From: a virus
Taxonomy: Duplodnaviria > Caudoviricetes
Length of the DNA stretch: 64,000 nt
IMG/VR virus record: IMGVR_UViG_3300012953_000012
Coordinates: 141,565 to 205,564 of that record
Strand: one strand, 5' to 3'
This document shows, piece after piece, positions 5,152-48,042 of the stretch. The notes beneath the pieces were generated by a model. The model saw only the letters and a list, made by a program, of their open reading frames with translations. It made no database searches and was not told the DNA's origin. Numbering within the stretch: the first letter of the stretch is position 1; each line of letters starts with the position of its first letter. The translations under genes and the position numbers were made by a program.

Positions 5152-5168
5152 CGGTAGTCCGTCTATCG
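5152..5168 (+). promoter_or_regulatory. Late-class motif CGGTAG-N5-CTATCG
   Basis: Exact consensus 28 nt upstream of ATG 5197. Confidence 0.7.
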
Positions 5169-7884: not shown

Positions 7885-7965
7885 GGTCAGTCCTACTTGA
7901 TGGGGGGCGAGATCACCCCCCTACAGACAAGACGCCAGCCGAGAGCCTTCGCGGACAGACTCGGA

Positions 7966-18669: not shown

Positions 18670-19167
18670 TTACTTGCCTTCGGAAGCGCGGACCTTGGCA
18701 ACGCTGTTGCGCTTGTCGCCGTTGGCGAAGTCAGCCAACTGGGCGGCGTGGTGGTGAGCCAGGCGGTGGCAGACAGCCACCATCGACTGGCCTGCGAAGG
18801 TCTTGCTGAACTCCTTGGCGGGGGTTTTGCTCCAGGACTTGCGCCCGGTGTAGGGGCACTTGCGAAGGAGGATCCAGGGGCTCTTACGGAAGCAGCCCTG
18901 GACGCGCTGGCGCATCACGCCGTCTTGCTGGCCACCGTCGAGGATGGCACCGAGGCGGGAGCCGACCTTGGAGTAGTTGTGGCCGAAGCCGATCCGGTTG
19001 TCGGCGTGGGTGGACTCGCTGGCCTTCTCAGAGGCCAACTGGCTGGCGTAGATGCGAGCCACGCCGCGCATGGCGGCGAAGTCGCCGCGAGTCATCCAGC
19101 CGAAGGGGGTCTTGACCCGGCGGGTGTCAGCAAGGAGGGCGCGGATGGAGGAAGCAGTGTGGGTCAT
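18670..19167 (-). CDS. Early hypothetical protein
   Basis: Own early motif, leader hairpin and ACGGAG RBS. Confidence 0.75.
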   Translation of the reverse strand: MTHTASSIRALLADTRRVKTPFGWMTRGDFAAMRGVARIYASQLASEKASESTHADNRIGFGHNYSKVGSRLGAILDGGQQDGVMRQRVQGCFRKSPWILLRKCPYTGRKSWSKTPAKEFSKTFAGQSMVAVCHRLAHHHAAQLADFANGDKRNSVAKVRASEGK

Positions 19168-19244
19168 GTAATCTCCGTTGGCTGCATGGCAGCACTGGGG
19201 GAAGGGGAGCAGTCGGAGGGGCCGGGGTGGCTCCCTCTCTCACA

Positions 19245-19274
19245 TACTTACGGAAGCAGCAGACGGTTTTAACG
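19245..19274 (-). promoter_or_regulatory. Early-class promoter CGTTAAAA-N7-CTGCTTCCGTAAGTA
   Basis: One of nine fixed-length 30-bp copies. Confidence 0.8.
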
Positions 19275-19324
19275 GGACGGGATCAAAAAAGATCACGGGC
19301 CGATTTCTCGCTGGGGCAAGACGC

Positions 19325-19388
19325 AAAAAACCCGCCCCCGTGGCAGTCCTGACATCTCTTCCAGAGCAGGACCGCACACGGGGGCGGG
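19325..19388 (-). terminator. Intrinsic terminator
   Basis: 12-bp GC stem followed by T6 on the minus strand. Confidence 0.65.
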
Positions 19389-19405
19389 AGTAAGTCGGGG
19401 CCAGG

Positions 19406-19717
19406 CTACGACCTGGCCTTCTTGATGGCAGCACGGCCAGCCTTCTCGGCCTCGGCCATGCCGTTGGCGAAGCCGCTGGCGAGGAGCACCTGCGGCGGCC
19501 AGCCGCGCCACGCACGACGCTTGTCGTGAGGGCCACGGCGCATGACGCGCCAGGCCACAACGCCTTGCTGCCAGTCTTGCACCGACTCCCCGGAGAGGGG
19601 GCGGGTGTGGATCTCGCTCTCGCTCTTGTCCGCGTGGCGGATCGAGTTGGAGCAGTAGGACTGCCAGTCGGCCAACGCCAGGGCGTTGGCGACGGCGTGG
19701 ATGTCGAGAGTAGGCAT
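19406..19717 (-). CDS. Early hypothetical protein (MPTLDIHA...)
   Basis: TGGAG RBS; strong codon bias. Confidence 0.7.
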   Translation of the reverse strand: MPTLDIHAVANALALADWQSYCSNSIRHADKSESEIHTRPLSGESVQDWQQGVVAWRVMRRGPHDKRRAWRGWPPQVLLASGFANGMAEAEKAGRAAIKKARS

Positions 19718-19809
19718 GGGGTCTCCAGTGGCTCCAGGGGAGCGCGGGGAAGGAGTGGGGAGGTTGGGGGAGGGGGCCTTTGTTTGTCGGTAGGCCCAAA
19801 CCGCCGGGA

Positions 19810-20352
19810 TCACCCGGCGTGGAAGGAAGCGCAGAGCACCTTGCCGTGCTCCATGCCCTCGACCGCAGCGCCAATCTCGATCACCTCAAGGGTGTCGATG
19901 GCGTCGGTCCAGGAGCCGTACTCCCCCTCGGAAGGGGAGCCGTCGTACTTGGACACGAAGCAACGCTGGTCGCTGTCCCAGCGGTCGTAGTCGCTGGGGT
20001 GGACCCGGCGAGCCAGGTCAGCGGTCGGAGCAGCCACGACGAAGCGGCTGTAGGTGTCGTAGCCACCCCGGCAGGTGCGGGTGACTTGCCAGAGGCGCAT
20101 CGGACCTTCGGTCTCGATGTTGGCCTCGCGCTCGGCGGCGGCAGCCTCAGCGGCCTCGGCCTGGGCCAGGGCGCGAGCCTCGTCAGCGGCGTGGTTGGCT
20201 GCCGCAAGGGCAGCGAGGGCGATGCGACGGCCCTCGTGGCGGCGAGAGGCGTTCGCCTGGGTCTGGATGAACAGGGCGTAGCCAGCGTCGGAGTACGGGT
20301 ACTCCATCGCCTTGCGGCGGGTCTCGCCGCGTCGGTGGTTGATGTGGGGCAT
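19810..20352 (-). CDS. Early hypothetical protein (MPHINHRR...)
   Basis: Own early motif, leader hairpin and AAGGAA RBS. Confidence 0.75.
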   Translation of the reverse strand: MPHINHRRGETRRKAMEYPYSDAGYALFIQTQANASRRHEGRRIALAALAAANHAADEARALAQAEAAEAAAAEREANIETEGPMRLWQVTRTCRGGYDTYSRFVVAAPTADLARRVHPSDYDRWDSDQRCFVSKYDGSPSEGEYGSWTDAIDTLEVIEIGAAVEGMEHGKVLCASFHAG

Positions 20353-20539
20353 GGTGTTCCTTTGGCAGCGTGGCTGCACTGGGGGTTGGAAGGGGACGGG
20401 CCTTTCACCCGGACGCCACTGTGTCGCGTGGTCCGCCTCGGCTCTTATATCCCTCGTGGCCTGCTACTAAGTCGAGGTGAACTCGCGGGCCGGGAGTGAC
20501 CGTTTCCCCCCGTGGGGTCAAGGCGTCTTCCCTTGTGCT

Positions 20540-20569
20540 TACTTACGGAAGCAGCGGCCCGGTTTAACG
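20540..20569 (-). promoter_or_regulatory. Early-class promoter
   Basis: CGTTAAACCGGGCCGCTGCTTCCGTAAGTA. Confidence 0.8.
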
Positions 20570-20580
20570 GCCAGGCCACA

Positions 20581-20627
20581 AAAAAAGTGAAAGACCCCCT
20601 GCGCCGCGCTTTGCGGAACAGGGGGTC
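20581..20627 (-). terminator. Intrinsic terminator
   Basis: GACCCCCTG/CAGGGGGTC stem followed by a T-rich tail on the minus strand. Confidence 0.55.
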
Positions 20628-20785
20628 AGCATCACACACGCTTCTCCGGGGTCGGTAGTCCGTGCCTCGGCGCGGGGAGCGATGCAGTCAGTGTTGTCGT
20701 GTCTTCCAATCAGCCGGAACCTCCTACCGTGGCGCTACTACGGAGAAGGGTCGTACAACCACCTCGCTCGACGGCGAGGGGTTCA

Positions 20786-20998
20786 TCACTCTTCGGCGGC
20801 GATAGCCATCAGGCTATCGTTCACAGCCTCGACCTCGGCCACCAACTCCCAGAGTTCGCTGACATTGAGCAGCGAAACTCCGAGGAGCCAGTTCCGGGGT
20901 CGCAGGCTACCGAAGACGTCCTTGTGCAGTTCCAGGTAGTGAAACACCGCCCAGTGAAGGCGGTATCTCGCGTCCCAGGTGCGAACATCGAAGGTGAT
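20786..20998 (-). CDS. Early hypothetical protein, candidate ATC start
   Basis: TGGAG-N6-ATC; no in-frame ATG near the start; coding-like composition. Confidence 0.55.
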   Translation of the reverse strand: MTFDVRTWDARYRLHWAVFHYLELHKDVFGSLRPRNWLLGVSLLNVSELWELVAEVEAVNDSLMAIAAEE

Positions 20999-21316
20999 GC
21001 GAAACTCCAGGTTGGGGTTGATGGGGAAGGGTGGACAAAGTGGTGAGGGACGTGAGAGGTCAAGCGCCACCCGGCCCCTCGTGGGGACCGGATGACGCGA
21101 CCCTTCTTCACTCCCATGTGAAGTGTGGCCCGTCAGGGTGGGCCAGTCCCTTCTGCGCCTTGTCGCATTTCGCAGTCGCGTCCCCGTGTGGTGGGATGAA
21201 ACCCCGCAGTTTCGCTCGCAGGTCGCGCTGTCGGTCACGTCGTGAGCACGTCCAGTTTAGCGCCATTGGGAAGGGCGTCCCTCCCCCCCCCGAAGGGGGA
21301 AGGGAAGGGGTTGAGC

Positions 21317-22111
21317 CTACGCAGCCACGGTGTCGAGGATGTTGGCGACCACCGTGGGGTCCACAGTGATGCCAGCGGCATCGGAAGCCGACACAGCCTC
21401 AGCGCCGAGGTTCAGGACAAAGTCCGTACCGGGCTCCAGGCAGTAGGAAACGTAGCGGCGGCTGGGGAGGAGGCGGGTGATGATCCGCTTCGCGACCGTC
21501 TTGCCGCCGCTCTTGCTCTGGGGGCGGGCGTACTGGGCAGCCTCGATGACCTTGCGGCCCACGCGGAGGCCCTGGACGTAGATGGTGCCAGGGGTGCTCG
21601 CGGGAGCCTCGTTGGGGTCAGCGGGGCCGACGTAGACGCGGTAGCCCTTGAGGGCCTTGCCGTCCACGACCAGGGGCTCGTAGACATGGTCGGTCGTGCT
21701 GGTGTTGGTGCCAGCGATGGACTTCGCGGTGCTGGCGATCATGTCGGCCAGGGCAGCGTCAAAGTCCGCACGGGTCACAGCCACCTGCGTGGCGTTCTTG
21801 CCGCGACCGCTCCAGGCCATGTGGCCGTCAGCGACCATGGCGTCGAGGTCAGCGCCGGTCAGCGCGTCGAGGATGACAGCATCCTTGCGCTTGAGGGCGG
21901 TGTAGGACCGTCCAGCGACGAACGTGTCGCGGACCGTGTCGTTGCCCATCTGCACCTTCTTGCCACCGCGCTTTTCGCCGGGGGCGAGGCGGGTGACACC
22001 CTTGAGGGTGGTGACGACGGACATGAAGGAAGCGCCCTGGGCGCTACGGCTGCCAGCGACGGCAGCGGCGAGGGTGGAGGAGTTGGCGTTGGTCTTGGTT
22101 GCGGTGGTCAT
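21317..22111 (-). CDS. Early hypothetical protein (MTTATKTNAN...)
   Basis: Own early motif, leader hairpin and AAGGAA RBS; very strong codon bias. Confidence 0.8.
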   Translation of the reverse strand: MTTATKTNANSSTLAAAVAGSRSAQGASFMSVVTTLKGVTRLAPGEKRGGKKVQMGNDTVRDTFVAGRSYTALKRKDAVILDALTGADLDAMVADGHMAWSGRGKNATQVAVTRADFDAALADMIASTAKSIAGTNTSTTDHVYEPLVVDGKALKGYRVYVGPADPNEAPASTPGTIYVQGLRVGRKVIEAAQYARPQSKSGGKTVAKRIITRLLPSRRYVSYCLEPGTDFVLNLGAEAVSASDAAGITVDPTVVANILDTVAA

Positions 22112-22183
22112 GATGATGTTCCTTTGGCCCCTGTGGGGCACTGGGTCTGGGAGCGGAGAGCAGCAGTGTGCCGCCCTCTCACA

Positions 22184-22213
22184 TACTTACGGAAGCAGGA
22201 GGGAGTTTTAACG
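22184..22213 (-). promoter_or_regulatory. Early-class promoter
   Basis: CGTTAAAACTCCCTCCTGCTTCCGTAAGTA. Confidence 0.8.
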
Positions 22214-22237
22214 AGACAGGGTGAAAGTTTTTTCGGA

Positions 22238-22278
22238 GATCGCTGAAAACCCCCACAGTGAAGGGGTTTTCAGCGATC
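22238..22278. terminator. Long inverted repeat / terminator
   Basis: 16-bp stem GATCGCTGAAAACCCC/GGGGTTTTCAGCGATC right after the stop at 22282. Confidence 0.65.
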
Positions 22279-22281
22279 CGA

Positions 22282-22587
22282 CTACTTGAGCATCCGGGAG
22301 GGGCAGATCACGACATCGCCTACGATGTCTCCCTCAGGGCCGAAGGCTGCTGAGGCGACCACGTTCTTCGGGAGGCCGTGGAGTCGGCCTTCCTCGTTCA
22401 TGATCATGATCCGCTTGATCTCGCGGCTCTTGGTCTTGGGCATCGGGTAGGTCTGGATGTAGCCTCCCACGGCCTTCTGCAACTCTTTGAGTCCGAAGTG
22501 CTTGCCGCTCTCGGGGTGGATGGGGGTCACCTTGCCATCGGAGGTGATCAGGACAGGTTGGTGCGGGTCGAAGGTGGAAGTAGAGAT
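22282..22587 (-). CDS. DUF3846-like protein, candidate ATC start
   Basis: LKELQKAVGGYIQ, MNEEGRLHGLPKN, IVGDVVIC; AAGGAGG-N5-ATC (alternative GTG at 22656). Confidence 0.75.
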   Translation of the reverse strand: MSTSTFDPHQPVLITSDGKVTPIHPESGKHFGLKELQKAVGGYIQTYPMPKTKSREIKRIMIMNEEGRLHGLPKNVVASAAFGPEGDIVGDVVICPSRMLK

Positions 22588-22652
22588 AGGAGCCTCCTTG
22601 GAAAGGCAGACCCCACCTCTCCAGGAGAGGCGGGGTCGTAGGGTTGGGGGGA

Positions 22653-23123
22653 TCACTGAGCAGGCTTGAAGCCTACGCGCGGGGTCGGTTCATCAAGCAC
22701 GACGTACTGGAGGATCTCTTCGGCGTTGCCGTCCTGGAGCCTCTCCATTTCGGCGGTCAAGAGATCGTTGATGTCGGGGCGCGTCCGAACGGTGGTGACA
22801 GTGCGGAAGTACTTGTCGAAGTCAGGGCCGAGATCCTTGCGGGCCTTCGACCAGTCAGCGCCCTTCAGAGCCTCGTAGCGGGTCTCAGGGAACGTGACGG
22901 ACACGCGCCCGTTGGACACCTGGTAGGCAACGTGGCCCGCTCCAGGCTCCCGCTCGGTACGGGCGAGGTCTCGGAGCAACCCTTTGAGGGGTTCCAGAGC
23001 GTCCTGGGCCTGTCGAACGTGGCGAGCCAGTTCGACAGCGACTTCAGACAGGGAATCAGCACTGCCGCCTCGCTTGGCAAGGTCAGCGGCGTCGTCGAGT
23101 AGTTGGTTGAATGGGGTAGTCAT
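22653..23123 (-). CDS. Early hypothetical protein (MTTPFNQLL...)
   Basis: Leader hairpin and GGAG RBS. Confidence 0.7.
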   Translation of the reverse strand: MTTPFNQLLDDAADLAKRGGSADSLSEVAVELARHVRQAQDALEPLKGLLRDLARTEREPGAGHVAYQVSNGRVSVTFPETRYEALKGADWSKARKDLGPDFDKYFRTVTTVRTRPDINDLLTAEMERLQDGNAEEILQYVVLDEPTPRVGFKPAQ

Positions 23124-23201
23124 GGGGTCTCCGGCGGCTGGGCCGCAACAGGTGACCACAGAGGGTGCGGCAACCCGCACCCCCGTGGCGGGGGGTGGGG
23201 G

Positions 23202-24020
23202 TTACTGGGCGAAGCACTCAGGGTGGAACACACCACCACCGTCCTCAGCGGGGCGGTAGTGGGCAGTCGATCCAGCCGGGATCGTCTTGCCGCAAGAGTG
23301 ACAAGGGCAGGCGAAGGGGACCGTGACTCCTGTCGGGGTCACAGGGACCTCCACCGTGTCTTCGGCAGCAGAGAGGCCCGCAGCCAGGACGAGTTCAGTC
23401 TTCGCGTCGAGCGCCGCAGCGACCTCAGCGAAGTCCGCCATGCCAGCCTGCTGACACAAGCCAGCGAGCGGGCAGGTGCGGCACTGATCGGAGCGGGAAG
23501 ACCACGCACCGAAGCACCGGGTCTGCTCGGCAGCCATGCGCCGCAAGCCCATGTCGGCAGCCTCGTAGCCGACGCTGTTCACAGCATCGGCCTGAGGGGT
23601 GAAGGACACGCCGTCCTTCGTGACCACGTTGACGGCCACAGGAGCGGCCACAGGAGCCTTCGCAGGCTCCTTCGGGGTCTGGACAGGCATCTCGGCCACA
23701 GGGGCCTCAGGAGCGGCCACAGGGGCCTCCACAGGCCCGGAGAGGGCGTAGTAGCCCCGGCGGGGGCAGGTGATCGCGCCTTCGGCCTTCAACTTGCCAG
23801 CGGCGAGGGTGACGGCACGCATCCCGCGAGGGTAGGGCTTCCCCCTCTTGGTCATGTTGCCCCAGGTGTCCCAGCCGGGGAAGGACGGCTGGATCTCACA
23901 CCAGTTCAGGACGGAGGCGAATCGAATCTCGCCACCACACGGGGCGAGTGCTGTAAGGGCGGCGATGACGACGCCCTTCCAGGCGTCGGCGTTGTGGGTC
24001 GTGGGGAAAGTGAAGGACAT
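23202..24020 (-). CDS. Early protein with putative N-terminal winged helix and two Cys/His metal clusters
   Basis: RRGYYAL, CRTCPLAGLC, CHSCG...HPEC. Confidence 0.7.
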   Translation of the reverse strand: MSFTFPTTHNADAWKGVVIAALTALAPCGGEIRFASVLNWCEIQPSFPGWDTWGNMTKRGKPYPRGMRAVTLAAGKLKAEGAITCPRRGYYALSGPVEAPVAAPEAPVAEMPVQTPKEPAKAPVAAPVAVNVVTKDGVSFTPQADAVNSVGYEAADMGLRRMAAEQTRCFGAWSSRSDQCRTCPLAGLCQQAGMADFAEVAAALDAKTELVLAAGLSAAEDTVEVPVTPTGVTVPFACPCHSCGKTIPAGSTAHYRPAEDGGGVFHPECFAQ

Positions 24021-24085
24021 GAGGTATCTCCGTTGGCCCGAGGCGGGCACTGGGTTGGGAGTGGTTGGGAGTGGTTGGGTTCAGG

Positions 24086-24115
24086 TACTTACGGGAGCAG
24101 GAGGCAAGATTAACG
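24086..24115 (-). promoter_or_regulatory. Early-class promoter
   Basis: CGTTAATCTTGCCTCCTGCTCCCGTAAGTA. Confidence 0.8.
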
Positions 24116-24150
24116 CCCACGGGGTCACTTTTTTCAGTGACCCCGTGGGC
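24115..24150. terminator. 15-bp inverted repeat downstream of the AAA+ gene
   Basis: GCCCACGGGGTCACT-N6-AGTGACCCCGTGGGC. Confidence 0.6.
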
Positions 24151-24157
24151 GTCGGGT

Positions 24158-25363
24158 CTACAGGTCCTCGTCAGCGAACACGCCACCAGTGACGTGAGCG
24201 TCGATCAGGGACTTGGCGATCAGCCGGTTGTCGGGGTCGAGCCGGTCAAGCCAGGCCCGGAAGCCCTTCTTGAGCAGACCCTTCGGCGGGGTGCCCTTCC
24301 CGAACCACAGGAGATCATCACACTCGGCAAGGATCTCGCAGAGTCCCCGGTGAGTGAGGTCAGCCTCCAGGTCCACCGTGGACTCGCCACGGATCGCGTT
24401 GCGGATCGCCACGGTAGCAGCCCCCAACTCATCGAAGACCAGGGGAGCCTTCGCAGCGAGGTCAGCAAACTTGCCTCGCAGGATGGCACCCTCGTCCTTC
24501 CAGTCGAGGTATTCGGCCTCCACGAAGCGGCCCATGCGGTCAAGCAGGGACGCATCCATGACCCGAGAGGACATGCGACCGTCCACGTCACCGGTCCCGC
24601 AGGAGTTCGCCGTGAAGGCGAAGCGGGTGCCGGGGAACAGGGTGTGAACCTGACCCGTGGGGCCGACGAGCCGCTTGCTGGTGGTGTCCAGCATCAGCCG
24701 GAACTCTTCCAACTGCTCAGGCGTGCCACGGTCCACGTCGCTGAAACAGATCAACGCGGGGTGGCGGCTGCCGTCTGCGGCCTGGATGCCGTGGATCAGC
24801 GCGTCCCAGAGGATGCCGTAGGACCAGGAGGTCCCGTTGGCACCGATCTCGCGGCTGTAAAACCACCGCTTCACGTCGGTGCCCGACGTGAACGTGTAGA
24901 TCAGGCTCGGAGTGCGCGTGTCGGCGCAGAAGGCCGAGATCGCGGCGTCCTTACCGGTGCCCGAGGGACCCCAGTAAAAGACAGGGTGGCCACGACGCAG
25001 CGCCAGGACGACCCGGCGGGTGCGCTCCAGCGCCTTCCCGCAGGAGGGCCACTGGTAGCCTTCGGGCTTCGGAAGGCACTGGCCCTCCGCGATGGCCACG
25101 TTGACAGGGGCCTTGACGCCCATCATGTCGTGACTGAGGGTGGCGAGAGCCGGGGCCGGGGATCGGCGCTGACCCTTGCGCTTGTCCTTCACACCCTGGA
25201 TCAGGGCGTGGCTGACAGTGGCAGCACCGGGGTGAGCGGAGAGGTAGTCGGCCACCGAGAGGCCGTGGGCCTCACGAAGGTGGTCGAGGAGGGAGTGTGA
25301 CTTGTGGCCACAGCCAGGGACCTGGCAGACGACGCGGTCGTCAACGAGTTTCAAAGCAGTCAT
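24158..25363 (-). CDS. MoxR/CbbQ/CobS-type AAA+ ATPase with N-terminal C2H2-like zinc finger
   Basis: GPSGTGKD (Walker A), atypical Walker B FSDVDRG, FTANS, MDASLLDRM; CQVPGCGHKSHSLLDHLREAH. Confidence 0.85.
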   Translation of the reverse strand: MTALKLVDDRVVCQVPGCGHKSHSLLDHLREAHGLSVADYLSAHPGAATVSHALIQGVKDKRKGQRRSPAPALATLSHDMMGVKAPVNVAIAEGQCLPKPEGYQWPSCGKALERTRRVVLALRRGHPVFYWGPSGTGKDAAISAFCADTRTPSLIYTFTSGTDVKRWFYSREIGANGTSWSYGILWDALIHGIQAADGSRHPALICFSDVDRGTPEQLEEFRLMLDTTSKRLVGPTGQVHTLFPGTRFAFTANSCGTGDVDGRMSSRVMDASLLDRMGRFVEAEYLDWKDEGAILRGKFADLAAKAPLVFDELGAATVAIRNAIRGESTVDLEADLTHRGLCEILAECDDLLWFGKGTPPKGLLKKGFRAWLDRLDPDNRLIAKSLIDAHVTGGVFADEDL

Positions 25364-25422
25364 GGTAGTGTTCCTTTGGCCGCTCAGTGCGGCTCTGGGG
25401 GATGGAGGGAAATGCTCTCAGG

Positions 25423-25452
25423 TACTTACGGAAGCAGGGGACGGTTTTAACG
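25423..25452 (-). promoter_or_regulatory. Early-class promoter
   Basis: CGTTAAAACCGTCCCCTGCTTCCGTAAGTA. Confidence 0.8.
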
Positions 25453-25472
25453 CCGCCCCCCTGAAAAAAGTC

Positions 25473-25856
25473 TCAAAGGCCGAACATCTCGGCCATGTCG
25501 CGGAGCAGGAGGTACTCGTTGCGACGTGCGGTGATGTACCGCTGCCCCACAGCAACGATGTGCTTGCAGGGACGACCGTTGCGGCCAAAGTCCTTGCAGG
25601 TGCAGGACATGGACCGGGTACGGCCTCGGACAGGACCGGCGATGACGACGGTGTAGACCTTGTCGGACGTGGCCGACTCGACGGTGGCCCGGATGGCTCC
25701 TGTCTTCTTGCTCTCGGTCGCCTTGACGATGGCGACAGTAGCGGCTCGCTCGGTGCGGCGACCGCAGGCACCGTCCAGCATGATGCGGACGGCCTTGCCA
25801 CGCTCAACGAGCGTGGCCTTGCGCTGCTCAATGTCAGCGGTGGTGATGGTGTTCAT
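25473..25856 (-). CDS. SWIM zinc-finger protein
   Basis: SCTCKDFGRNGRPCKHIVAV. Confidence 0.8.
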   Translation of the reverse strand: MNTITTADIEQRKATLVERGKAVRIMLDGACGRRTERAATVAIVKATESKKTGAIRATVESATSDKVYTVVIAGPVRGRTRSMSCTCKDFGRNGRPCKHIVAVGQRYITARRNEYLLLRDMAEMFGL

Positions 25857-25880
25857 GGGGTGCTCCAGAAGGGGTTCATG

Positions 25881-25910
25881 GTCTTACGGGAGCAGGGGGA
25901 GGTTTTAACG
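25881..25910 (-). promoter_or_regulatory. Early-class promoter
   Basis: CGTTAAAACCTCCCCCTGCTCCCGTAAGAC. Confidence 0.78.
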
Positions 25911-25946
25911 GCCTGTGGGTCAACTTTTTCGTGATCCCACGAACGG

Positions 25947-25980
25947 CACCAACCTCCTCTCGTAAGAGAGGAGGTTGGTG
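25947..25980. repeat. Perfect 15-bp inverted repeat with GTAA loop at the early divergence point
   Basis: CACCAACCTCCTCTC-GTAA-GAGAGGAGGTTGGTG. Confidence 0.85.
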
Positions 25981-26080
25981 AATCCGACGAGATTCACTGT
26001 TGTTCGGTGAGATCACGGCACGGGGTCACTGTTGCACAACGGCGTGGTGTGGGTGGTTTTCATCTTTTTCAGGGGGGTCC

Positions 26081-26110
26081 CGTTAAAACATGCGGCTGCT
26101 TCCGTAAGTA
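26081..26110 (+). promoter_or_regulatory. Early-class promoter
   Basis: CGTTAAAACATGCGGCTGCTTCCGTAAGTA. Confidence 0.8.
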
Positions 26111-26170
26111 CCTGACACCAATCACCCACCACTTCACCCTGCGCCGCGACGAGCGGCCATCGGAGAGACC

Positions 26171-27289
26171 ATGCCTACGAAGCAAGCCGCCCCACGGGGC
26201 ACGACGACCCTCAGTGGTCGCAAGTGGATCGGAGCCGCCCAGGCTTCGGTCGATTCAATCCTGGGGGATGCGTCCCCCAAAGTCTCCAGCCGTGGAGGCT
26301 CGTTCTTCAACGTCAACCGCTGGACCGCCCGGATCCTGTTCGGTCGGCTGACCGAGAGCATCAAGTACGGCAACGAGATGGACGAGACCACCGTCCGCAA
26401 CGGTCTCGACCTGGCCAACGGCACCAAGGTGCCCAAGCGCGAGATCGTGATCGCTGCGGTTCCTGACCGCATCCCGCCCTGGCTGGCACGGTCCTCCGTT
26501 GGAGGCCGCTACCACGAGGCGTGGCATGATCTCTACTCGTGTACGCGGGACCTGACCTTCGACGAGGTCAACGGGCCGCTGATGGCTCGCTGGGATCTGC
26601 TCGACGACTGGGGTCCTTTCGTTGGCGCTGTCCTCACCTGGGGCAACGTGATCGAGGACATCCGCATCGAGCGTCACGGCTGCCGGGAGTTTCCCGGCTC
26701 CCAGGACAAGATGGAAGACCTCCAGGACTTGATCCTGGTCATGGAGTCCGAGGGCCGGACGGCTGCGGAGCACCGTGGTCTGCCTACCAACGACGACATG
26801 GCTGTGGTCATGGGCGCGTTCCGTGATCTCGGTCTGGGCTACCAGACTGAGAAGCAGGAGGCCGCGCTCGCTGGCTACCAGAAGCGGTCGCCCGCTGGCT
26901 GGCGGCTCGTCACTGAGGGACCGTTGAAGCCTCTCCTGGACCGTGCCATCACCATGGGCCGGGACGATGACCTGGGTCACTGGTGGCTCGCCATGGAGGT
27001 CGTGGCTGTGCTGGCATCCCTCGGGAAGCAGACTCAGCAGCAGCCTCCACCCCCTGGCGGCGAAGGCGACGAAAGCCAGCCCCCGCCTCCCGGACCTCCG
27101 AGTGATTGTGACGACTCGGATGGTGAGAGCGGCAAGGGCAAGCCTCCCCGGTTCCCCCTGTTCAAGGTGGGTGATCGTGCGAAGGCGAAGCGTGGAGCCT
27201 ACGCGGGCAAGATCGTCGAGGTGACCTTCGCTGGTCCTCCCGACGAGGAAGGCCGCCAGAGCCTCAAGTTTGCCGTCGTCGAAGATTGA
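26171..27289 (+). CDS. CobT-N-like protein with HExxH motif
   Basis: YHEAWH...NVIEDIRIER, as in N-terminal domains of phage vWA/CobT-like proteins; Pro-rich tail. Confidence 0.7.
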   Translation: MPTKQAAPRGTTTLSGRKWIGAAQASVDSILGDASPKVSSRGGSFFNVNRWTARILFGRLTESIKYGNEMDETTVRNGLDLANGTKVPKREIVIAAVPDRIPPWLARSSVGGRYHEAWHDLYSCTRDLTFDEVNGPLMARWDLLDDWGPFVGAVLTWGNVIEDIRIERHGCREFPGSQDKMEDLQDLILVMESEGRTAAEHRGLPTNDDMAVVMGAFRDLGLGYQTEKQEAALAGYQKRSPAGWRLVTEGPLKPLLDRAITMGRDDDLGHWWLAMEVVAVLASLGKQTQQQPPPPGGEGDESQPPPPGPPSDCDDSDGESGKGKPPRFPLFKVGDRAKAKRGAYAGKIVEVTFAGPPDEEGRQSLKFAVVED

Positions 27290-27308
27290 GACTTTTCGGG
27301 CCGGTGGC

Positions 27309-27338
27309 CGTTAAAACGGTCGCCGGTTTCCGTAAGTA
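27309..27338 (+). promoter_or_regulatory. Early-class promoter
   Basis: CGTTAAAACGGTCGCCGGTTTCCGTAAGTA. Confidence 0.75.
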
Positions 27339-27393
27339 TGTGAACCCCTTCCCCCTACCCCCAGACGCCCATCGAGGGCGCACAGGAGATCCC

Positions 27394-29040
27394 ATGACTA
27401 CTTCCATTTTGACCAGCCTGATGCGGCTGGGTGCCGAGATCTTCGGCAGCAACGAAGACCTCACCATGCTTCCCAAGGACGACCAGTCCGGCGGCGGCGA
27501 TGGTGAGTCTGATGACGACGACTCGGACCAGGACGGCGACGATGCCGATGAGTCCGGTGGCGACCAGGACGACAGCGATGCTGGCGACCAGGACGGTGAC
27601 CAGGACGGTGACCAGGACGACCAGTCCGGCGACGATGCCGATGGCGAGTCCGGCGAGTCTGGCGATGACCAGGACGACACCGATGGTGACGGCTCTGGTG
27701 AGTCCGGCGATGACACCGATGGTGACGAAGGCCAGGACGACGACGGCGACGACGGCGACGAGTCCAACGGTTCCGATGACGGTTCCGAGGGCGACGAGTC
27801 CGGCGACCAGCCCGGTGACGAGTCCGGTGACTCTGGCGAGGGCGACGGCTCCGACAAGACCGACGACAGCGACAGCGGCGAGCAGACCGACGACGTTGAT
27901 CCCCAGTCTGACAAGACCGCTGGCGGCTTTGATCCTGGCGAGGACTTCGCTGACGCCATGGTCGATGGCCTCAAGGCCCCCCAGGATCACATCAAGGACG
28001 CGGCTGACGCGCTGGCCGAAGCCACGGACAAGTGCCGCGACGAAGACGATGTTCACCCTGGTGAGCAGGTCTGGCGTCCCTACAACCCTGAGGCGGACGT
28101 CATCGTCAAGCCGAAGGGCGACCGAGAGTCGGCTGAGACCCTGCGGAAGGAGGCCAAGTTGCTGACCGCTGCCCTCCGCACACAGTTTCGGCGTCGGTTC
28201 CTGGCTGCGAAGAACCCCCGTGAACAGCACGGTGTTCGGCGCGGCAAGGACCTCTCCGAGCGTCGGCTCGTGGAGTCGTTCGTCGAGATCAAGTCCGGCG
28301 TGCGCCCCAGCCGCCCCGACTTCAAGGTCGAGTCCCAGAGGGACGTATCCCTGGCCCTCGGCGTCGTGATCGACCAGTCCGGCTCCATGCACGGTCGCGA
28401 GCAGCACGCTGCTGCGGTGGCTGCCCTGGCACTGGCTGAGTCCTTCGACTCCCTGAACTCCCCTGTGATGGTCTGCGGACCTCGCAACAGTGGGCGGGAC
28501 GTTCGACGGGCGGACACCGGCTACTACACGGACATCGACAACGACGACAGCCACACCGGCAGCGTCGATGTGATGCGAGGTCCGAGGTGTCACCGCTACG
28601 TCGCCACGGCCATCGACCTGTTCATGGACTGGGACGAGTCCTTCAAGCAGGTCAAGCACCGCTTCAGCAACGTCCGGGCTACGGGCTCCACGCCCCTGTC
28701 TGACGGCATCCAGTTCGCCATGCAGGAGTTGTCCAACCGCCCTGAGCGTCACCGGATCATCGTGGTCCTGACGGACGGGGAGCCGGACAACTCCGCTGTG
28801 GTGACCCGCCAGATCCGCCTGGCTCGTGAGGCCGGGATCACCGTGATCGGTGTCGGCATCAGCGGGGCCGAGTACGCGGTCCCCCGCCTGTTCGTTGACC
28901 ACCACATCGTCGTCAACGACCTCACGGAGTTGCCGAAGGCGATGATGGCTGTCGTCGGTGCCATCGTGTTCCCCCGGAGTGCCAAGAAGGCGGTCCTGGA
29001 CGGGCGCATCGGCACCCGGCGGCAACGTCGGCGGGCGTAG
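27394..29040 (+). CDS. vWA-domain (CobT-like) protein with long acidic linker
   Basis: MIDAS motifs VIDQSGSM, GSTPL, VLTDGEPD. Confidence 0.85.
   Translation: MTTSILTSLMRLGAEIFGSNEDLTMLPKDDQSGGGDGESDDDDSDQDGDDADESGGDQDDSDAGDQDGDQDGDQDDQSGDDADGESGESGDDQDDTDGDGSGESGDDTDGDEGQDDDGDDGDESNGSDDGSEGDESGDQPGDESGDSGEGDGSDKTDDSDSGEQTDDVDPQSDKTAGGFDPGEDFADAMVDGLKAPQDHIKDAADALAEATDKCRDEDDVHPGEQVWRPYNPEADVIVKPKGDRESAETLRKEAKLLTAALRTQFRRRFLAAKNPREQHGVRRGKDLSERRLVESFVEIKSGVRPSRPDFKVESQRDVSLALGVVIDQSGSMHGREQHAAAVAALALAESFDSLNSPVMVCGPRNSGRDVRRADTGYYTDIDNDDSHTGSVDVMRGPRCHRYVATAIDLFMDWDESFKQVKHRFSNVRATGSTPLSDGIQFAMQELSNRPERHRIIVVLTDGEPDNSAVVTRQIRLAREAGITVIGVGISGAEYAVPRLFVDHHIVVNDLTELPKAMMAVVGAIVFPRSAKKAVLDGRIGTRRQRRRA
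27480..27905 (+). repeat. Low-complexity D/G/E/S/Q-coding repeats
   Basis: Imperfect GACCAGGACGGT and GAGTCCGGC units encoding about 140 acidic residues. Confidence 0.8.
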
Positions 29041-29052
29041 CCCTCCCCTCTC

Positions 29053-29090
29053 CCCCAGGAAGCCCCCACGGGCTTCCTGGGGCTTCCCTT
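29053..29090 (+). terminator. Terminator-like hairpin
   Basis: CCCCAGGAAGCCC/GGGCTTCCTGGGG right after the vWA stop. Confidence 0.6.
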
Positions 29091-29114
29091 TCAACCTTCA
29101 ACCCAGGAGTCCAC

Positions 29115-29315
29115 ATGGACATCACTGACATGGGTGACGGGCGCATGGCCGTCACCGGAACCAAGGACGAGTTGGACGCGGCTACCCTCTGGGCACGCGC
29201 CATGCTCCACGCGGTCTTCGGTCCCGAGGGTGGTGAGCAACGCTTCAAGGCTATCCCGGCCCTGGCTGTGCTCATGGCCTACCGTGAGCGAGTCGCACAC
29301 GCCCCCGACTGCTGA
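29115..29315 (+). CDS. Small early hypothetical protein
   Basis: AGGAG RBS. Confidence 0.65.
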   Translation: MDITDMGDGRMAVTGTKDELDAATLWARAMLHAVFGPEGGEQRFKAIPALAVLMAYRERVAHAPDC

Positions 29316-29335
29316 TCTCAACAAACCCTTCAACC

Positions 29336-29381
29336 CGAAAACGGCCCCCACCTTGCCTTATGGCGGTGGGGGCCGTTTTCG
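29336..29381. terminator. Terminator hairpin
   Basis: 17-bp stem CGAAAACGGCCCCCACC/GGTGGGGGCCGTTTTCG. Confidence 0.7.
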
Positions 29382-29394
29382 TCGTTGCGGTGCC

Positions 29395-29424
29395 CGTTAA
29401 AAGTGCCTCCTGCTTCCGTAAAGA
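29395..29424 (+). promoter_or_regulatory. Early-class promoter
   Basis: CGTTAAAAGTGCCTCCTGCTTCCGTAAAGA. Confidence 0.75.
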
Positions 29425-29495
29425 GACACAGGGCAGCACCGCCCACCACCCTCTGCCCCGTTGGGGGCCTGGCCCACTGAGGCCCAAAGGAACCT

Positions 29496-29648
29496 ATCGC
29501 TACCAACGACCCCATCGTCCTCCCCACCGTCCCTGCCACCCCTTCCCTCATTGACCTGGCCAACCAGGCCGAAGACGCCCAGGTCGAAGCCCTGACCCCG
29601 GAGCAGGTCGAAGCCCTGCTCCGTCGCTTCACGCAGATGCTCGACTGA
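29496..29648 (+). CDS. Small acidic early protein (50 aa), candidate ATC start
   Basis: Early promoter, leader hairpin, AAAGGAA-CCT-ATC, strongly biased codons, downstream terminator; in-frame TGA at 29478. Confidence 0.6.
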   Translation: MATNDPIVLPTVPATPSLIDLANQAEDAQVEALTPEQVEALLRRFTQMLD

Positions 29649-29655
29649 TCCTGCT

Positions 29656-29690
29656 GCCCCCGCTCGCCCCGTGCGAGCGGGGGCCGTTTC
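29656..29690 (+). terminator. Terminator ending the rightward early arm
   Basis: 12-bp GC stem followed by CGTTTC. Confidence 0.6.
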
Positions 29691-29900
29691 GTTCGTCTCG
29701 GCTACCCCTCCGCGCTACCCCTCCACGGTGGCCCTCCAGGACGCGCCTCTCCCCCCACCGAGAAATAGGTGGAACCGCCGACATAAATCAAGGGGGGTCC
29801 CCGGCCTGTCATGACGGGCGCATTGAAACCGCGTCCAAAATCAGATTGCTGATCCCAACCCCCCTTGCCATCCCCTTTCCCTGCGGGAATCGAACCGGCG

Positions 29901-29996
29901 AGTAGACCCACAAGCAGACCTCCGAGCAGACCCACAAGTAGACGCTCTCACAGAGGGGGGCCTCTCTCACACGGGATCACGGGATCACGGGATCAC
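29901..29996. repeat. Short tandem repeats (12-bp AG(T/C)AGACC... x3.5; GGGATCAC x3)
   Basis: Read directly in the intergenic DNA. Confidence 0.7.
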
Positions 29997-30126
29997 TGAC
30001 TCCCCGGCTGCGAAATAGTTTCGCGGCTGGTCCCAGAACAAAAATCCCAACCCCCTCTCGGTGAGGGGACAGGACCAGGGGTGCGGACCCGTACAACAGG
30101 TCTCAACCCCAACGTGAGACTGAACC

Positions 30127-34423: not shown

Positions 34424-34440
34424 CGGTAGTGCGACTATAG
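34424..34440 (+). promoter_or_regulatory. Late-class motif CGGTAG-N5-CTATAG
   Basis: 33 nt upstream of the tagged gene at 34474. Confidence 0.7.
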
Positions 34441-34473
34441 GATCAGAAGGTCAAGACTTCTGGAGCGACCCCG

Positions 34474-37950: not shown

Positions 37951-37967
37951 CGGTAGACGCTCTATGT
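37951..37967 (+). promoter_or_regulatory. Late-class motif CGGTAG-N5-CTATGT
   Basis: Upstream of 37995. Confidence 0.65.
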
Positions 37968-37994
37968 TTTCGGGGGGTGTAGGAGAGTAGGATC

Positions 37995-46511: not shown

Positions 46512-47801
46512 CTACCGGGCTACGAAGGTGTCACCCCAGCCTTTGCGGACGAGGCCCTGAATGTCGAGGTAGGCCAGGCACCGGTCGAGTCGTGGCTGGT
46601 CCATCCGCAGCGCCTCCTTGATTTCCTTCTTGGTGGACCACGGCTCCATGCGGAGCAGGGCCAGAGTGTTTTGGGCATCTTCACGAGTCTGGATGCCTTC
46701 GCGCAACGCCGCCCGGACCTTGCTCCGGTTGGTGAGGGCACGGGTCACCGAGCACTCGTCCATGTCGGCAATCTCCTCGGCACTCGCTCCTGCGATCATG
46801 GCGTCGTACACAGCAGTGTACCGCTCGACTGCGCCCCGGAACGCGGAGGCAACGATCTCCCGACCGACTCGGACCATCTCCTCTCGGTCCCGGTGAGTTG
46901 CGACCTCGTCCTCAGGGGTCATGCTGGGGTCCACCAGGACATGCTCCACAACCAGGTCCCCTTCGTCGGGCTTCATTCGGATGACCTCGATGTCCCCTGC
47001 CACCAGGCTCTCAGGGGCGACATAGTCCTCCTGACCGAGTTCAATGCGTTGGTTGATCTCATGCTGGGTGCGAGCGCCGCGCTGACGGGCAAGAGCGTCC
47101 TGAGCGGACTTGTAGATGGAAGAGGTGCGCTTGCGCTCCAATGCCCGGCACAACCACGAGAACGGGACCGCGCCCTTCTCCTTGATGACGGCATCGAACG
47201 TGCCCTTCTGTCCCCAGGTTGCCAACCACAGGCCAGCGTCTGAACGGAGGTCATCGAAGTCAGCATGGACATCGCGCTTCGCCAACATCGCGGCAAGTCG
47301 TTTGATGAGGCCGTGCTCCGCGATCTGAACCGCCAGCCACTCTTGGGTCAGGGTGGTGGAGGCAGCGGGAGCCTTCACAGGAGCCGCAGGAGCCTCGACA
47401 GGGGCTTCCTCGACCACAGGCTCCGGTGCAGCCTCGACAACGGGCTCGACAGGCTGTGGGGTCTCGACGGGGGTTGAGTCGGTGTTGCTCTCCGGGAGCA
47501 CGTCGAGGACGATCTCGCGGTCTCCGTCACGGAGGGTGGCGAGCAGGGTCTCGGGCTGACCTCGGAGGGCAGCGAGTAGAGCGGATGCAAAGCGGGTCTG
47601 AGCCCCAGCGCCCTTGAAGCCATTTTGGAGCACGAGGTCACGGCGCACGATGCTGCGCTTGCGGCCCTGCTCTTCGGCGGTGGCGGTGATCCAGACGCTG
47701 ATCTCTCGCTCGACCGAGGCGTCGTCCTCGGGAGTGGCGGTGAAGCCGCTGATCAGGTTGGTGAGGAGGGCGAGACGGCGTGGGGTGGTCTTGATAGACA
47801 T
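46512..47801 (-). CDS. ECF-like sigma factor with N-terminal extension and extra C-terminal wHTH
   Basis: Region 2: LIKRLAAML...DFDDLRSD...FD...FSWLCR. Region 4: ERYTAV...GASAEEIA...SVTRALTNRSKVRAALR. Confidence 0.7.
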   Translation of the reverse strand: MSIKTTPRRLALLTNLISGFTATPEDDASVEREISVWITATAEEQGRKRSIVRRDLVLQNGFKGAGAQTRFASALLAALRGQPETLLATLRDGDREIVLDVLPESNTDSTPVETPQPVEPVVEAAPEPVVEEAPVEAPAAPVKAPAASTTLTQEWLAVQIAEHGLIKRLAAMLAKRDVHADFDDLRSDAGLWLATWGQKGTFDAVIKEKGAVPFSWLCRALERKRTSSIYKSAQDALARQRGARTQHEINQRIELGQEDYVAPESLVAGDIEVIRMKPDEGDLVVEHVLVDPSMTPEDEVATHRDREEMVRVGREIVASAFRGAVERYTAVYDAMIAGASAEEIADMDECSVTRALTNRSKVRAALREGIQTREDAQNTLALLRMEPWSTKKEIKEALRMDQPRLDRCLAYLDIQGLVRKGWGDTFVAR

Positions 47802-47907: not shown

Positions 47908-47936
47908 GTTGTAGCATGGGAGGAGCGGCGGGTCAA
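47908..47936 (-). promoter_or_regulatory. Host sigma70-type promoter TTGACC-N17-TACAAC with extended -10 TG
   Basis: Canonical spacing, upstream of the sigma gene at 47801. Confidence 0.6.
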
Positions 47937-47991: not shown

Positions 47992-48042
47992 CGGTAGAGT
48001 GGCTATGATCACGGACCAGTGATCTCGGTAGTCCCTCTATGG
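47992..48042 (+). promoter_or_regulatory. Two tandem late-class motifs (47992-48008, 48026-48042)
   Basis: CGGTAG-AGTGG-CTATGA and CGGTAG-TCCCT-CTATGG. Confidence 0.72.

Follow-up and report, generated by a model that had tools for sequence, protein, structure and literature searches.

A candidate phage-specific promoter class that is recoded between lineages of uncultured marine giant phages

Introduction

In Bacillus phage SPO1, gp28 and gp33/34 form a phage sigma cascade on the host core polymerase. Within the T7 group (T7, T3, SP6, and K11), polymerases and promoters have co-diverged as pairs, each consisting of a single-subunit RNA polymerase and a continuous promoter of approximately 20 bp. 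Promoters of extracytoplasmic function (ECF, group 4) sigma factors are exemplified by TGAAAC-N16-CGTA of Bacillus sigma-W. For phage phiEco32, a sigma cascade on the host core polymerase has been described as well, in which gp36 is the phage sigma factor and the middle and late promoters carry a short AATGTA at -11.5 (PMC12276001). In the promoter early stem-loops (PeSLs) of T4-like phages, a terminator and an early promoter, the latter being a host sigma70 promoter, surround small, variable, and mostly orphan genes at the borders of indels (PMC2839356, PMC4122927). Here, we describe a 36-nt bipartite element, termed class I, that recurs in a 64-kb stretch of viral DNA (hereafter the window), together with the sigma-like proteins that may read it.

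The window corresponds to the final 64 kb of an IMG/VR virus contig of 205,564 bp (G000), with a G+C content of approximately 62%. The contig encodes a family A DNA polymerase, a Baseplate_J protein, topoisomerase IB, a DNA methylase, a RecD-like helicase, and ribonucleotide reductase, and it therefore belongs to a tailed giant phage. This phage is uncultured, and the sequencing runs containing DNA of the contig are marine metagenomes. The runs listed for an 8.5-kb stretch and for a single gene include no RNA run, and the only one with the full DNA probably represents the source sample.

In our assessment, a slight balance of probability favors the explanation that the nine elements of the window are copies of a phage-specific delayed-early promoter class, which would be read by the sigma-like protein sigma2 on the host core polymerase, promoter and reader having co-diverged. 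In its proposed mechanism, the system is similar to the sigma cascades known from phiEco32 and SPO1. New features are that a promoter class has been recoded by lineage and that it comes in mobile cassettes whose leader hairpin is conserved.

A 36-nt element recurs at five loci of the contig

A previous sequence-only reading of the window had listed nine 30-bp elements between 19.2 and 29.5 kb. Our scan recovered all of them at the same places, 8 as exact matches to a strict pattern and all nine when up to 3 mismatches were allowed, compared to 0.00 to 0.01 matches in shuffled sequences. As had been noted, all nine are directed outward from approximately 26.0 kb (Table 1); on the minus strand, the earlier start positions are 3 nt lower than those of our 27-mer pattern, because the 30-bp element takes in the adjoining GTA. 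The absence of further copies holds within the window (up to 3 mismatches; weight matrix of at least 12 bits), but the contig contains 8 more, spread over four further loci. A weight-matrix scan of the whole 205 kb returned 17 sites, which score between 44 and 59 bits, with zero sites between 12 and 44 bits. The divergent early island, which had been regarded as the defining unit, is therefore only one of five loci at which the class is present. All 17 copies are intergenic and directed at the next gene, and the distance from the end of the 27-mer to the start codon amounts to 27 to 80 nt for 14 of them. That each copy precedes a start codon is correct in general, with the reservation that copy 2 has a 190-nt leader, which closes with the usual leader module (see below) before its ATG, and that copy 9 lies before a frame starting with ATC.

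While the 30-bp element is real, the conserved block proved to be longer: it comprises 36 nt, CGTTAAAA-N7-CTGCTTCCGTAAGTA-nn-TGA, running on to ..GTA-nn-TGA and preceded by an A/T tract. In an alignment of the 17 copies from the contig, positions 1 to 8 (CGTTAAAA), 13 (C), 16 to 30 (CTGCTTCCGTAAGTA), and 33 to 35 (TGA) are invariant or near-invariant, with CCGTA being identical in 17 of 17 copies. Positions 9 to 15, apart from the C at position 13, and both flanks are variable, and since they vary while the blocks stay fixed, a simple recent duplication is argued against. Deviations within the window include 2 mismatches in the so-called spacer block of copy 8 and the replacement of GTA in copies 6 and 9 (Table 1). 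This spacer, CTGCTTC, is conserved as had been stated and forms the upstream half of the 15-nt near-invariant block CTGCTTCCGTAAGTA. The A/T tracts reported upstream were confirmed for most copies, at -18 to -11 relative to the element, and copies 5 and 7 indeed have the upstream sequence TTTTTCAGGGGGG in common.

Comparison with known promoter types

The element had been considered readable either as a sigma70-like (TTAAAA-16-TAAGTA) or as an ECF-like promoter (CGTTAA-16-CGTAA). For sigma70, we looked for a -35 near TTGACA and a -10 near TATAAT (A at position 2, T at position 6) with a spacer of 16 to 18 nt. The sigma70 alternative did not withstand this comparison, as its best form, TTAAAA-16-TAAGTA, shows only 4 of 6 matches in the -35 and 2 of 6 in the -10, without a T at -7, and a scan of 17.5 to 31.5 kb with the sigma70 consensus returned 0 sites. 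The ECF alternative held for one half of the element. The CGT core of ECF -10 regions is present in the invariant CCGTA, which is kept in all four consensus types (A to D) described below, but the AAC expected approximately 16 to 17 nt upstream of CGT is absent from the -35 of type A (CGTTAAAA) and type B (GGTTGGAGC) and occurs only in type C (GTTCAAC), 15 nt before CGT. The similarity to ECF promoters therefore comprises the -10 core with CGT(A), the rigid bipartite form CGTTAA-16-CGTAA, and the presence of ECF-like sigma genes in the same genome, whereas conservation over 36 nt and the lack of autoregulation, with no class I copy upstream of sigma1 or sigma2, set the element apart.

Three further promoter types were rejected. 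For sigma54, GG and GC are out of the required 12-nt register, and a reading of TGCTT as a T4 MotA box places it 3 nt from the -10-like block instead of approximately 12 nt (both by inspection). Palindromes in types B and C prompted a test for N4-type hairpin promoters around the -35 block in G000, in which complementarity between the 14 nt upstream and N7 was not higher within than between sites (mean stem 2.8 versus 2.9 nt; permutation p 0.73).

The exact element has 0 matches in the genomes of 185,579 bacterial and archaeal species. Exact-pattern scans yielded 2 contigs of close relatives and 1 chance match among metagenome contigs, as well as one relative (G001) and 2 chance matches among viral contigs. 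When the island was compared to 50,697 phage records by Megablast, no match was obtained, so that no deposited phage is alike at the DNA level.

Recoding of the element between sibling phages

Close relatives with 89% to 95% DNA identity (G001 and two MDTG contigs) keep the element, with most of the substitutions located in N7 or at the Y position. Two changes depart from this rule, one in CTGCT of the copy at 94220+, which is a deviant copy anyway, and one just downstream of copy 9. Likewise, copy 3 is kept in the metagenome relative L029, with changes confined to N7 and the Y position.

The situation is different in the sibling contig G002, although the adjacent AAA_5 protein is 90% identical and the median ortholog identity to G000 is 78%. 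Zero type A elements were found there at up to 3 mismatches; instead, the orthologous places are occupied by 7 copies of a type B element, GGTTGGAGC-N9-CTYCCGTACCTA, with the fuller consensus TTTTTTCG-N8-tGGTTGGAGC-N9-CTYCCGTACCTAcTAcGAG. The divergent layout and the leader hairpins are the same as in G000, and two further type B copies are present on a second contig of the same sample (L051). A type C element, GGGGGTTCAACTC..TATCTCCGTATAGG (in short form, GGGGGTTCAACTC...TCTCCGTATAGG), occurs in 22 copies in the 297-kb contig G004 and is also found in G003 and L031, while a relative with 51% G+C carries GGGTTCCCGAC..CTTCCCGTAAGTA. When aligned at CCGTA, all types have in common only the upstream A/T tract, a GTT at approximately -20/-21 from CCGTA, YCCGTA, and a purine-rich start region. 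Since only YCCGTA of the CTGCTTCCGTAAGTA block is kept across lineages, part of this block would be a lineage-specific recognition sequence rather than an inert spacer.

Other putative promoters of these phages stay unchanged. The motif GGTAG-N5-CTAT, which looks like a late promoter class, has 19, 16, and 29 copies in G000, G002, and G004, respectively (approximately 2 at most in shuffled sequences), and is unchanged in the three lineages. A second motif, GGGGG-N16-19-NGGTA[CT], possibly a middle promoter class, has 13 copies compared to approximately 5 in shuffled sequences and is located approximately 20 to 75 nt before polA, sigma1, and other genes; the copy before sigma1 is kept in types A, B, and C. 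Finally, a scan of all intergenic DNA of the contig revealed a single sigma70-like promoter, TTGACC-17-TGcTACAAC, which precedes sigma2. Its -35 and -10 are kept in G000, G001, G002, and G004 (TTGACC-17-TAGGAT in the latter), while the spacer drifts. As all three remain the same, class I is the one putative promoter class that has been rewritten between lineages. Such wholesale rewriting of one class at approximately 78% shared protein identity has seldom been documented for sigma-dependent promoters.

The presence of mutually different, internally uniform promoter sets in close relatives is reminiscent of the T7 group, although a bipartite promoter and, as its likely reader, a sigma factor are involved here. 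Sets of this kind imply that reader and promoters changed together, and we infer that they also diverged together between the siblings studied here, giving the consensus types A, B, C, and D. The earlier proposal of a phage-specific regulon needing a dedicated factor is thereby strengthened: with the sigma70 test failed, the consensus rewritten in siblings whose other classes are unchanged, and two sigma-like proteins encoded, a dedicated factor is most likely needed.

Two sigma-like proteins as candidate readers

The clearer of the two sigma-like proteins is sigma1 (302 aa, G000 87182-88090, outside the window), in which clear motifs of regions 2 and 4 come after a conserved N-terminal domain of approximately 110 aa. 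Its family comprises 915 homologs, many on contigs of 100 to 370 kb. The sigma1 profile matches sigma-H in the PDB (E 3.5e-4), the Atlas score is 0.96, and sigma factors, with many ECF members among them, account for approximately 45 of its top 50 Foldseek rows. Its Foldseek matches include chain 9m7y_F of the gp79-dependent open complex, which represents a further likeness to phiEco32.

In the second protein, sigma2 (429 aa), conserved blocks resembling regions 2 and 4 are accompanied by an acidic Pro/Ala/Glu linker and, at the C-terminus, by a winged helix. An Atlas feature match links it to a Sigma70_r2 cluster (0.93), and in its top 20 Foldseek rows, no other kind of protein is as frequent as sigma factors, albeit with E-values of only 0.1 to 1. 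No match was obtained for sigma2 in Pfam, and PDB sequence searches with the protein alone and with its profile gave no sigma match. The matches listed by VIA-align for the sigma2 model all derive from the winged helix at residues 367-429, and none bears on the sigma-like part. This winged helix is well predicted (VIA Z 10-12 to the winged helices of MarR, Z-alpha, and Rpa2) and is an unusual addition to a sigma factor.

Two features of a phage sigma cascade are thus present, namely an encoded sigma70-family protein (sigma1 and, more weakly, sigma2) and a host-type promoter before a sigma gene (sigma2). In phiEco32 and SPO1, the host sigma reads the first phage genes, and a phage sigma then redirects the host core to promoters unlike those of the host; here, as judged from sequence, a sigma-like gene lies behind the only host-type promoter, and a separate promoter class exists in many copies. 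The differences are that the element is a 36-nt bipartite one with an ECF-style CCGTA core, in contrast to the promoters of phiEco32, and that, in contrast to both phages, the favored sigma has extra N-terminal and winged-helix domains and the consensus varies between siblings.

The sequences show the elements with their anatomy and distribution, their recoding between lineages, and the indels of cassettes, from which we infer the promoter activity of class I, its start site, and the identity of the reading sigma. Sigma2 is the favored reader because it diverges fast, because its region 4-like helix changes, and because a host-type promoter precedes its gene. Among the 66 orthologs compared for types A and B, the identity of sigma2 (59%) is the 10th lowest, and among the 120 compared for types A and C (37%), it is the 8th lowest. 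Its region 4-like helix differs by type (SVTRALTNRSKVR in A, SEGRATTLKSKIR in B, and STLRAAHLAGRVR in C), and type B sigma2 has a 6-residue insertion just before this helix. In the proposed mechanism, host RNA polymerase with the host primary sigma would first transcribe sigma2 from the only sigma70-type intergenic promoter; sigma2 would then bind the host core polymerase and direct it to the class I promoters by reading the ECF-style -10 core CCGTA together with the lineage-specific -35 block. Each cassette has an A/T tract at approximately -50, the position of an UP element, followed by the -35-like CGTTAAAA, a variable 7-nt gap, and the 15-nt block with the -10-like core (CTGCTT-CCGTA-AGTA). 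Further downstream, the predicted start region (..TGA), a leader of 30 to 190 nt, a covarying 5-bp hairpin before the ribosome site, and one to three genes follow. The transcript start is expected 5 to 10 nt downstream of CCGTAAGTA, and an A/T tract at the distance of an UP element fits a host core enzyme with alpha subunits.

The designation immediate-early, given by the sequence-only reading, finds no support in this order of events. As the contig's only intergenic sigma70-like promoter drives sigma2 and is conserved in three lineages, class I most likely has to wait for the newly made phage sigma, which would render it delayed-early. The proposed scheme would provide a concrete transcription program for marine giant phages from an uncultured clade with genomes of approximately 260 kb, leading from a host-type promoter via a phage sigma to a many-copy early class, with two further classes in addition.

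Sigma1 instead of sigma2 could read the same promoter class, which we regard as unlikely, even though several observations speak for it. Of the two proteins, it can be assigned to the ECF type more clearly, and the -10 core CCGTA has the style of ECF promoters; region 2 of sigma1 is, like CCGTA, invariant across the clade; its recognition helix changes from R to W between types A and B; and its gene lies 6 to 10 kb from two class I clusters. However, sigma1 is conserved above the ortholog median in both comparisons (82% between A and B, 67% between A and C), whereas class I is the only recoded class. Furthermore, two type C phages have the -35 block TTCAA in common, yet their sigma1 helices differ at approximately half of the positions. 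The sigma1 gene also lies behind a promoter of the GGGGG..CGGTA class, which heads polA as well, so that its product would probably appear only after those of the early-type class I genes.

Several points weigh against the assignment to sigma2. Its identity as a sigma factor is weaker than that of sigma1, given the Foldseek E-values and the missing sequence matches. An AAC, as is typical of ECF promoters, is missing from the -35 blocks of types A and B, and the sigma1 recognition helix changes between types A and B as well, by the single residue mentioned above. The assignment is based on three or four lineages, a correlation of rates, and one conserved host-type promoter. As over 10 kb separate sigma2 from the class I site closest to it, short metagenome contigs cannot link sigma2 variants to promoter types beyond three lineages. 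Two phage sigma-like proteins for three phage-specific classes would call for at least one further reader, and approximately 50 kb of the genome lie outside this contig, where another factor could be encoded.

Should sigma2 be the reader, it might form with class I sigma/promoter pairs that are orthogonal by nature, carry a different code in each type of sibling giant phage (A, B, C, and D), and act as a transcriptional barrier, an idea that we consider tentative and rather doubtful at present. If true, the early cassettes of each lineage would be expressed only by their own sigma; co-infecting relatives would be isolated from each other, or the early program would be guarded against hijacking; and the uniform cassette ends would still permit the exchange of gene modules within a lineage. 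Such phages may also be a source of natural orthogonal sigma/promoter sets.

Putative promoter cassettes and their dynamics

Class I elements are part of a recurrent unit in the order terminator, A/T tract, promoter, leader, covarying 5-bp hairpin by the ribosome site, and gene(s). A G+C-rich hairpin with a T or A run after or within it lies directly upstream of most copies and is the predicted terminator of the preceding unit; copy 4 adjoins a 13-bp hairpin whose loop holds the A-tract. Several leaders open with a stem-loop that takes in the conserved GTGAG. Close to the ribosome site, a perfect stem of at least 5 bp, ending 12 to 20 nt before the start codon, was found for 12 of the 15 first genes that are placed directly behind a class I site in the analyzed gene list (within 12 to 17 nt for 11 of them), compared to 20 of 207 other genes (Fisher p 3.5e-9). 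The stem is followed by CA(A/C)nGGAG and exists in at least 7 different sequences (e.g., GCCGC/GCGGC, GCCCC/GGGGC, GCTGC/GCAGC, GCAGC/GCTGC, and GCCCG/CGGGC); its pairing, rather than its sequence, is kept. The same kind of hairpin is present in the sigma2 leader. An Rfam search over 17 to 32 kb gave only a chance microRNA match (E 0.21).

The genes behind class I elements are of early or accessory type: they encode an AAA_5 ATPase, VWA/CobT-like, SWIM, DUF3846, DUF3228, ProQ-C-like, and WGR proteins, an NAD-dependent ligase, and many orphans, while recognizable virion genes are absent. Between siblings, whole cassettes may be present or absent. The G000 island and its G002 counterpart align gene by gene at approximately 76% to 80% identity with three exceptions. 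First, G002 lacks 3 of the 9 cassettes, namely two that span G000 160167-162586 and that of copy 9 (170882-171220); second, the DUF3846 segment has been replaced; and third, the promoter regions do not align. In G002, two type B promoters lie only 109 nt apart (7826-7935, minus strand; L040). The interval consists of just a hairpin and a T run and looks like an empty cassette resulting from a deletion.

This organization is shared with PeSLs in the combination of a terminator hairpin, with T or A runs, and a putative early promoter around small, variable, and mostly orphan genes, as well as in the location at indel borders, including the empty cassette. It differs in that the elements fail the sigma70 test, are recoded between lineages, and are accompanied by a conserved hairpin at the ribosome site. 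The idea of mobile promoter-terminator cassettes would thus extend beyond T4-like phages and host-sigma promoters. In these genomes, the motif with its lineage variants can also serve annotation as a marker of early cassettes and of the borders of transcription units.

The same resemblance of architecture and cassette-sized indels to PeSLs (PMC4122927, PMC2839356) underlies a second alternative, according to which the unmodified host holoenzyme, with a primary or alternative host sigma, uses the elements as strong early promoters, their extra conservation being due to concerted evolution of mobile promoter-terminator cassettes. The early type of the downstream genes and the A/T tract at the position of an UP element would fit as well. 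Nevertheless, we deem this quite improbable: the element is unlike the sigma70-type promoter that the same phages conserve before sigma2, homogenization would not leave N7 and the flanks variable, the consensus is rewritten in siblings whose host-type and late-type promoters are unchanged, and the element was not found in any of the reference genomes searched.

A slightly smaller chance still is given to a reader that is packaged in the virion or to an RNA polymerase of the phage that is non-canonical and represented by one of the large orphans (1196-3824 aa), which would make the class truly immediate-early. Several very large proteins indeed lack a Pfam or PHROG match, and a crisp, all-or-none motif of 36 nt recalls the promoters of phage polymerases. 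However, the bipartite layout, the variable gap, and the UP-like tract fit a sigma factor on the host core, and neither sigma1 nor sigma2 contains RVA-x-R[YFW], a proposed capsid-targeting tag. PHROGs and Pfam searches revealed nothing polymerase-like among the large orphans. The Pfam RNA_pol (T7-like) search of the contig, outside of which approximately 50 kb of the genome lie, gave no match, but neither did it in any control genome, and it therefore carries no weight here.

That the elements are not primarily promoters but recombination or integration sites, operators, or mobile repeats, as their position at indel borders and the back-to-back arrangement of some might suggest, is very improbable in view of their strict orientation and distance to start codons, their -35/-10-like layout with terminators upstream and a class-specific leader downstream, and the lack of any inverted-repeat or target-duplication structure, with the hairpin test around the -35 block being negative.

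Feature coordinates and additional observations

Table 1. Class I elements, associated genes and hairpins, and further putative promoters. Positions refer to the window unless marked G000; E-values refer to the family match.
Feature	Position	Strand	Score	Remarks
Class I element, copy 1	19239..19274	-	58.2 bits	CGTTAAAA-N7-CTGCTTCCGTAAGTAtgTGAg; 27-mer match 19248
Class I element, copy 2	20534..20569	-	43.9 bits	190-nt leader to ATG 20352; 27-mer match 20543
Class I element, copy 3	22178..22213	-	57.9 bits	27-mer match 22187
Class I element, copy 4	24080..24115	-	46.7 bits	CGTTAATC variant; 27-mer match 24089
Class I element, copy 5	25417..25452	-	56.0 bits	before AAA_5 (CobS/MoxR-like) gene; 27-mer match 25426
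Class I element, copy 6	25875..25910	-	46.5 bits	GAC for GTA; before SWIM zinc-finger gene; 27-nt leader; 27-mer match 25884
Class I element, copy 7	26081..26116	+	50.4 bits	divergent pair with copy 6; 27-mer match 26081
Class I element, copy 8	27309..27344	+	51.1 bits	CCGGTTTCCGTAA variant; before VWA/CobT-like gene; 27-mer match 27309
Class I element, copy 9	29395..29430	+	44.8 bits	AGA for GTA; whole cassette absent from sibling G002; 27-mer match 29395
Class I elements outside the window	G000 39454-/39503+, 76700-, 78487-/78602+, 94159-/94220+, 95133+			eight copies; three back-to-back pairs
Gene behind copy 1	18670..19167	-		165 aa, no family
Gene behind copy 2	19810..20352	-		180 aa, no family; then 19406-19717 (103 aa)
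Gene behind copy 3	21317..22111	-		264 aa, no family
Three genes behind copy 4	22282..24020	-		272 aa and 156 aa (no family), 124-aa DUF3846 protein
Gene behind copy 5	24158..25363	-	E 5.5e-7	401 aa, AAA_5 ATPase
Gene behind copy 6	25473..25856	-	E 4.9e-8	127 aa, SWIM zinc finger
Gene behind copy 7	26171..27289	+		372 aa, no family
Gene behind copy 8	27394..29040	+	E 1.4e-9	548 aa, VWA/CobT-like
Frame behind copy 9	29496..29648	+		50 codons; ribosome site aaaggaac, then ATC start
Leader hairpin	19181..19193	-		GCTGC-cat-GCAGC, then CAACGGAG and ATG
Leader hairpin	20365..20377	-		GCAGC-cac-GCTGC, then CAAAGGAA and ATG
Leader hairpin	22127..22139	-		GCCCC-aca-GGGGC
Leader hairpin	24036..24048	-		GCCCG-cct-CGGGC
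Leader hairpin	25379..25393	-		GCCGC-actga-GCGGC
Leader hairpin	26143..26157	+		GCCGC-gacga-GCGGC
Leader hairpin	27366..27380	+		CGCCC-atcga-GGGCG
Leader hairpin	29471..29484	+		GGCC-cactga-GGCC, then CAAAGGAAC; read from sequence
Terminator-like hairpin	29053..29082	+		ends VWA cassette
Terminator-like hairpin	29656..29684	+		ends copy-9 cassette
sigma2	46512..47801	-		429-aa sigma-like protein, favored class I reader
sigma70-like promoter	47908..47936	-		TTGACC-17-TGcTACAAC, before sigma2
GGGGG-N16-19-NGGTA[CT] sites	G000 60194, 65638, 69072, 88154(-), 186631(-) (window 45067), 199164 (window 57600), 204809 (window 63245)			possible middle promoter class

The GGTAG-N5-CTAT motif is found approximately 35 to 50 nt before many start codons (e.g., at window positions 5152-5165, 34432-34445, 37956-37969, and 48027-48040), and one copy heads the operon with the Baseplate_J gene.

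With regard to genome size, the sibling contig G002 joins both ends of G000 (through its region 51.9 to 100.7 kb), and near-identical sigma1 sequences were found on contigs of up to 258,585 bp. Since G002 bridges the ends and a near-identical sigma1 sits on a contig of that length, the full genome probably comprises approximately 255 to 260 kb, and the estimate of 46% completeness for G000 appears too low.

The short frame behind copy 9 has a good ribosome site, and its N-terminus, I(A/S)T..IVLPTVP, is kept in the relative G001 and divergent thereafter; its ATC may be a non-canonical start codon. Following the island, the non-coding stretch from 29657 to 30056 is 84% to 93% identical to G002, compared to approximately 76% for the flanking genes. 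It contains three tandem copies of GGGATCAC (window 29975-29997) and could represent an origin, an iteron array, or a non-coding RNA.

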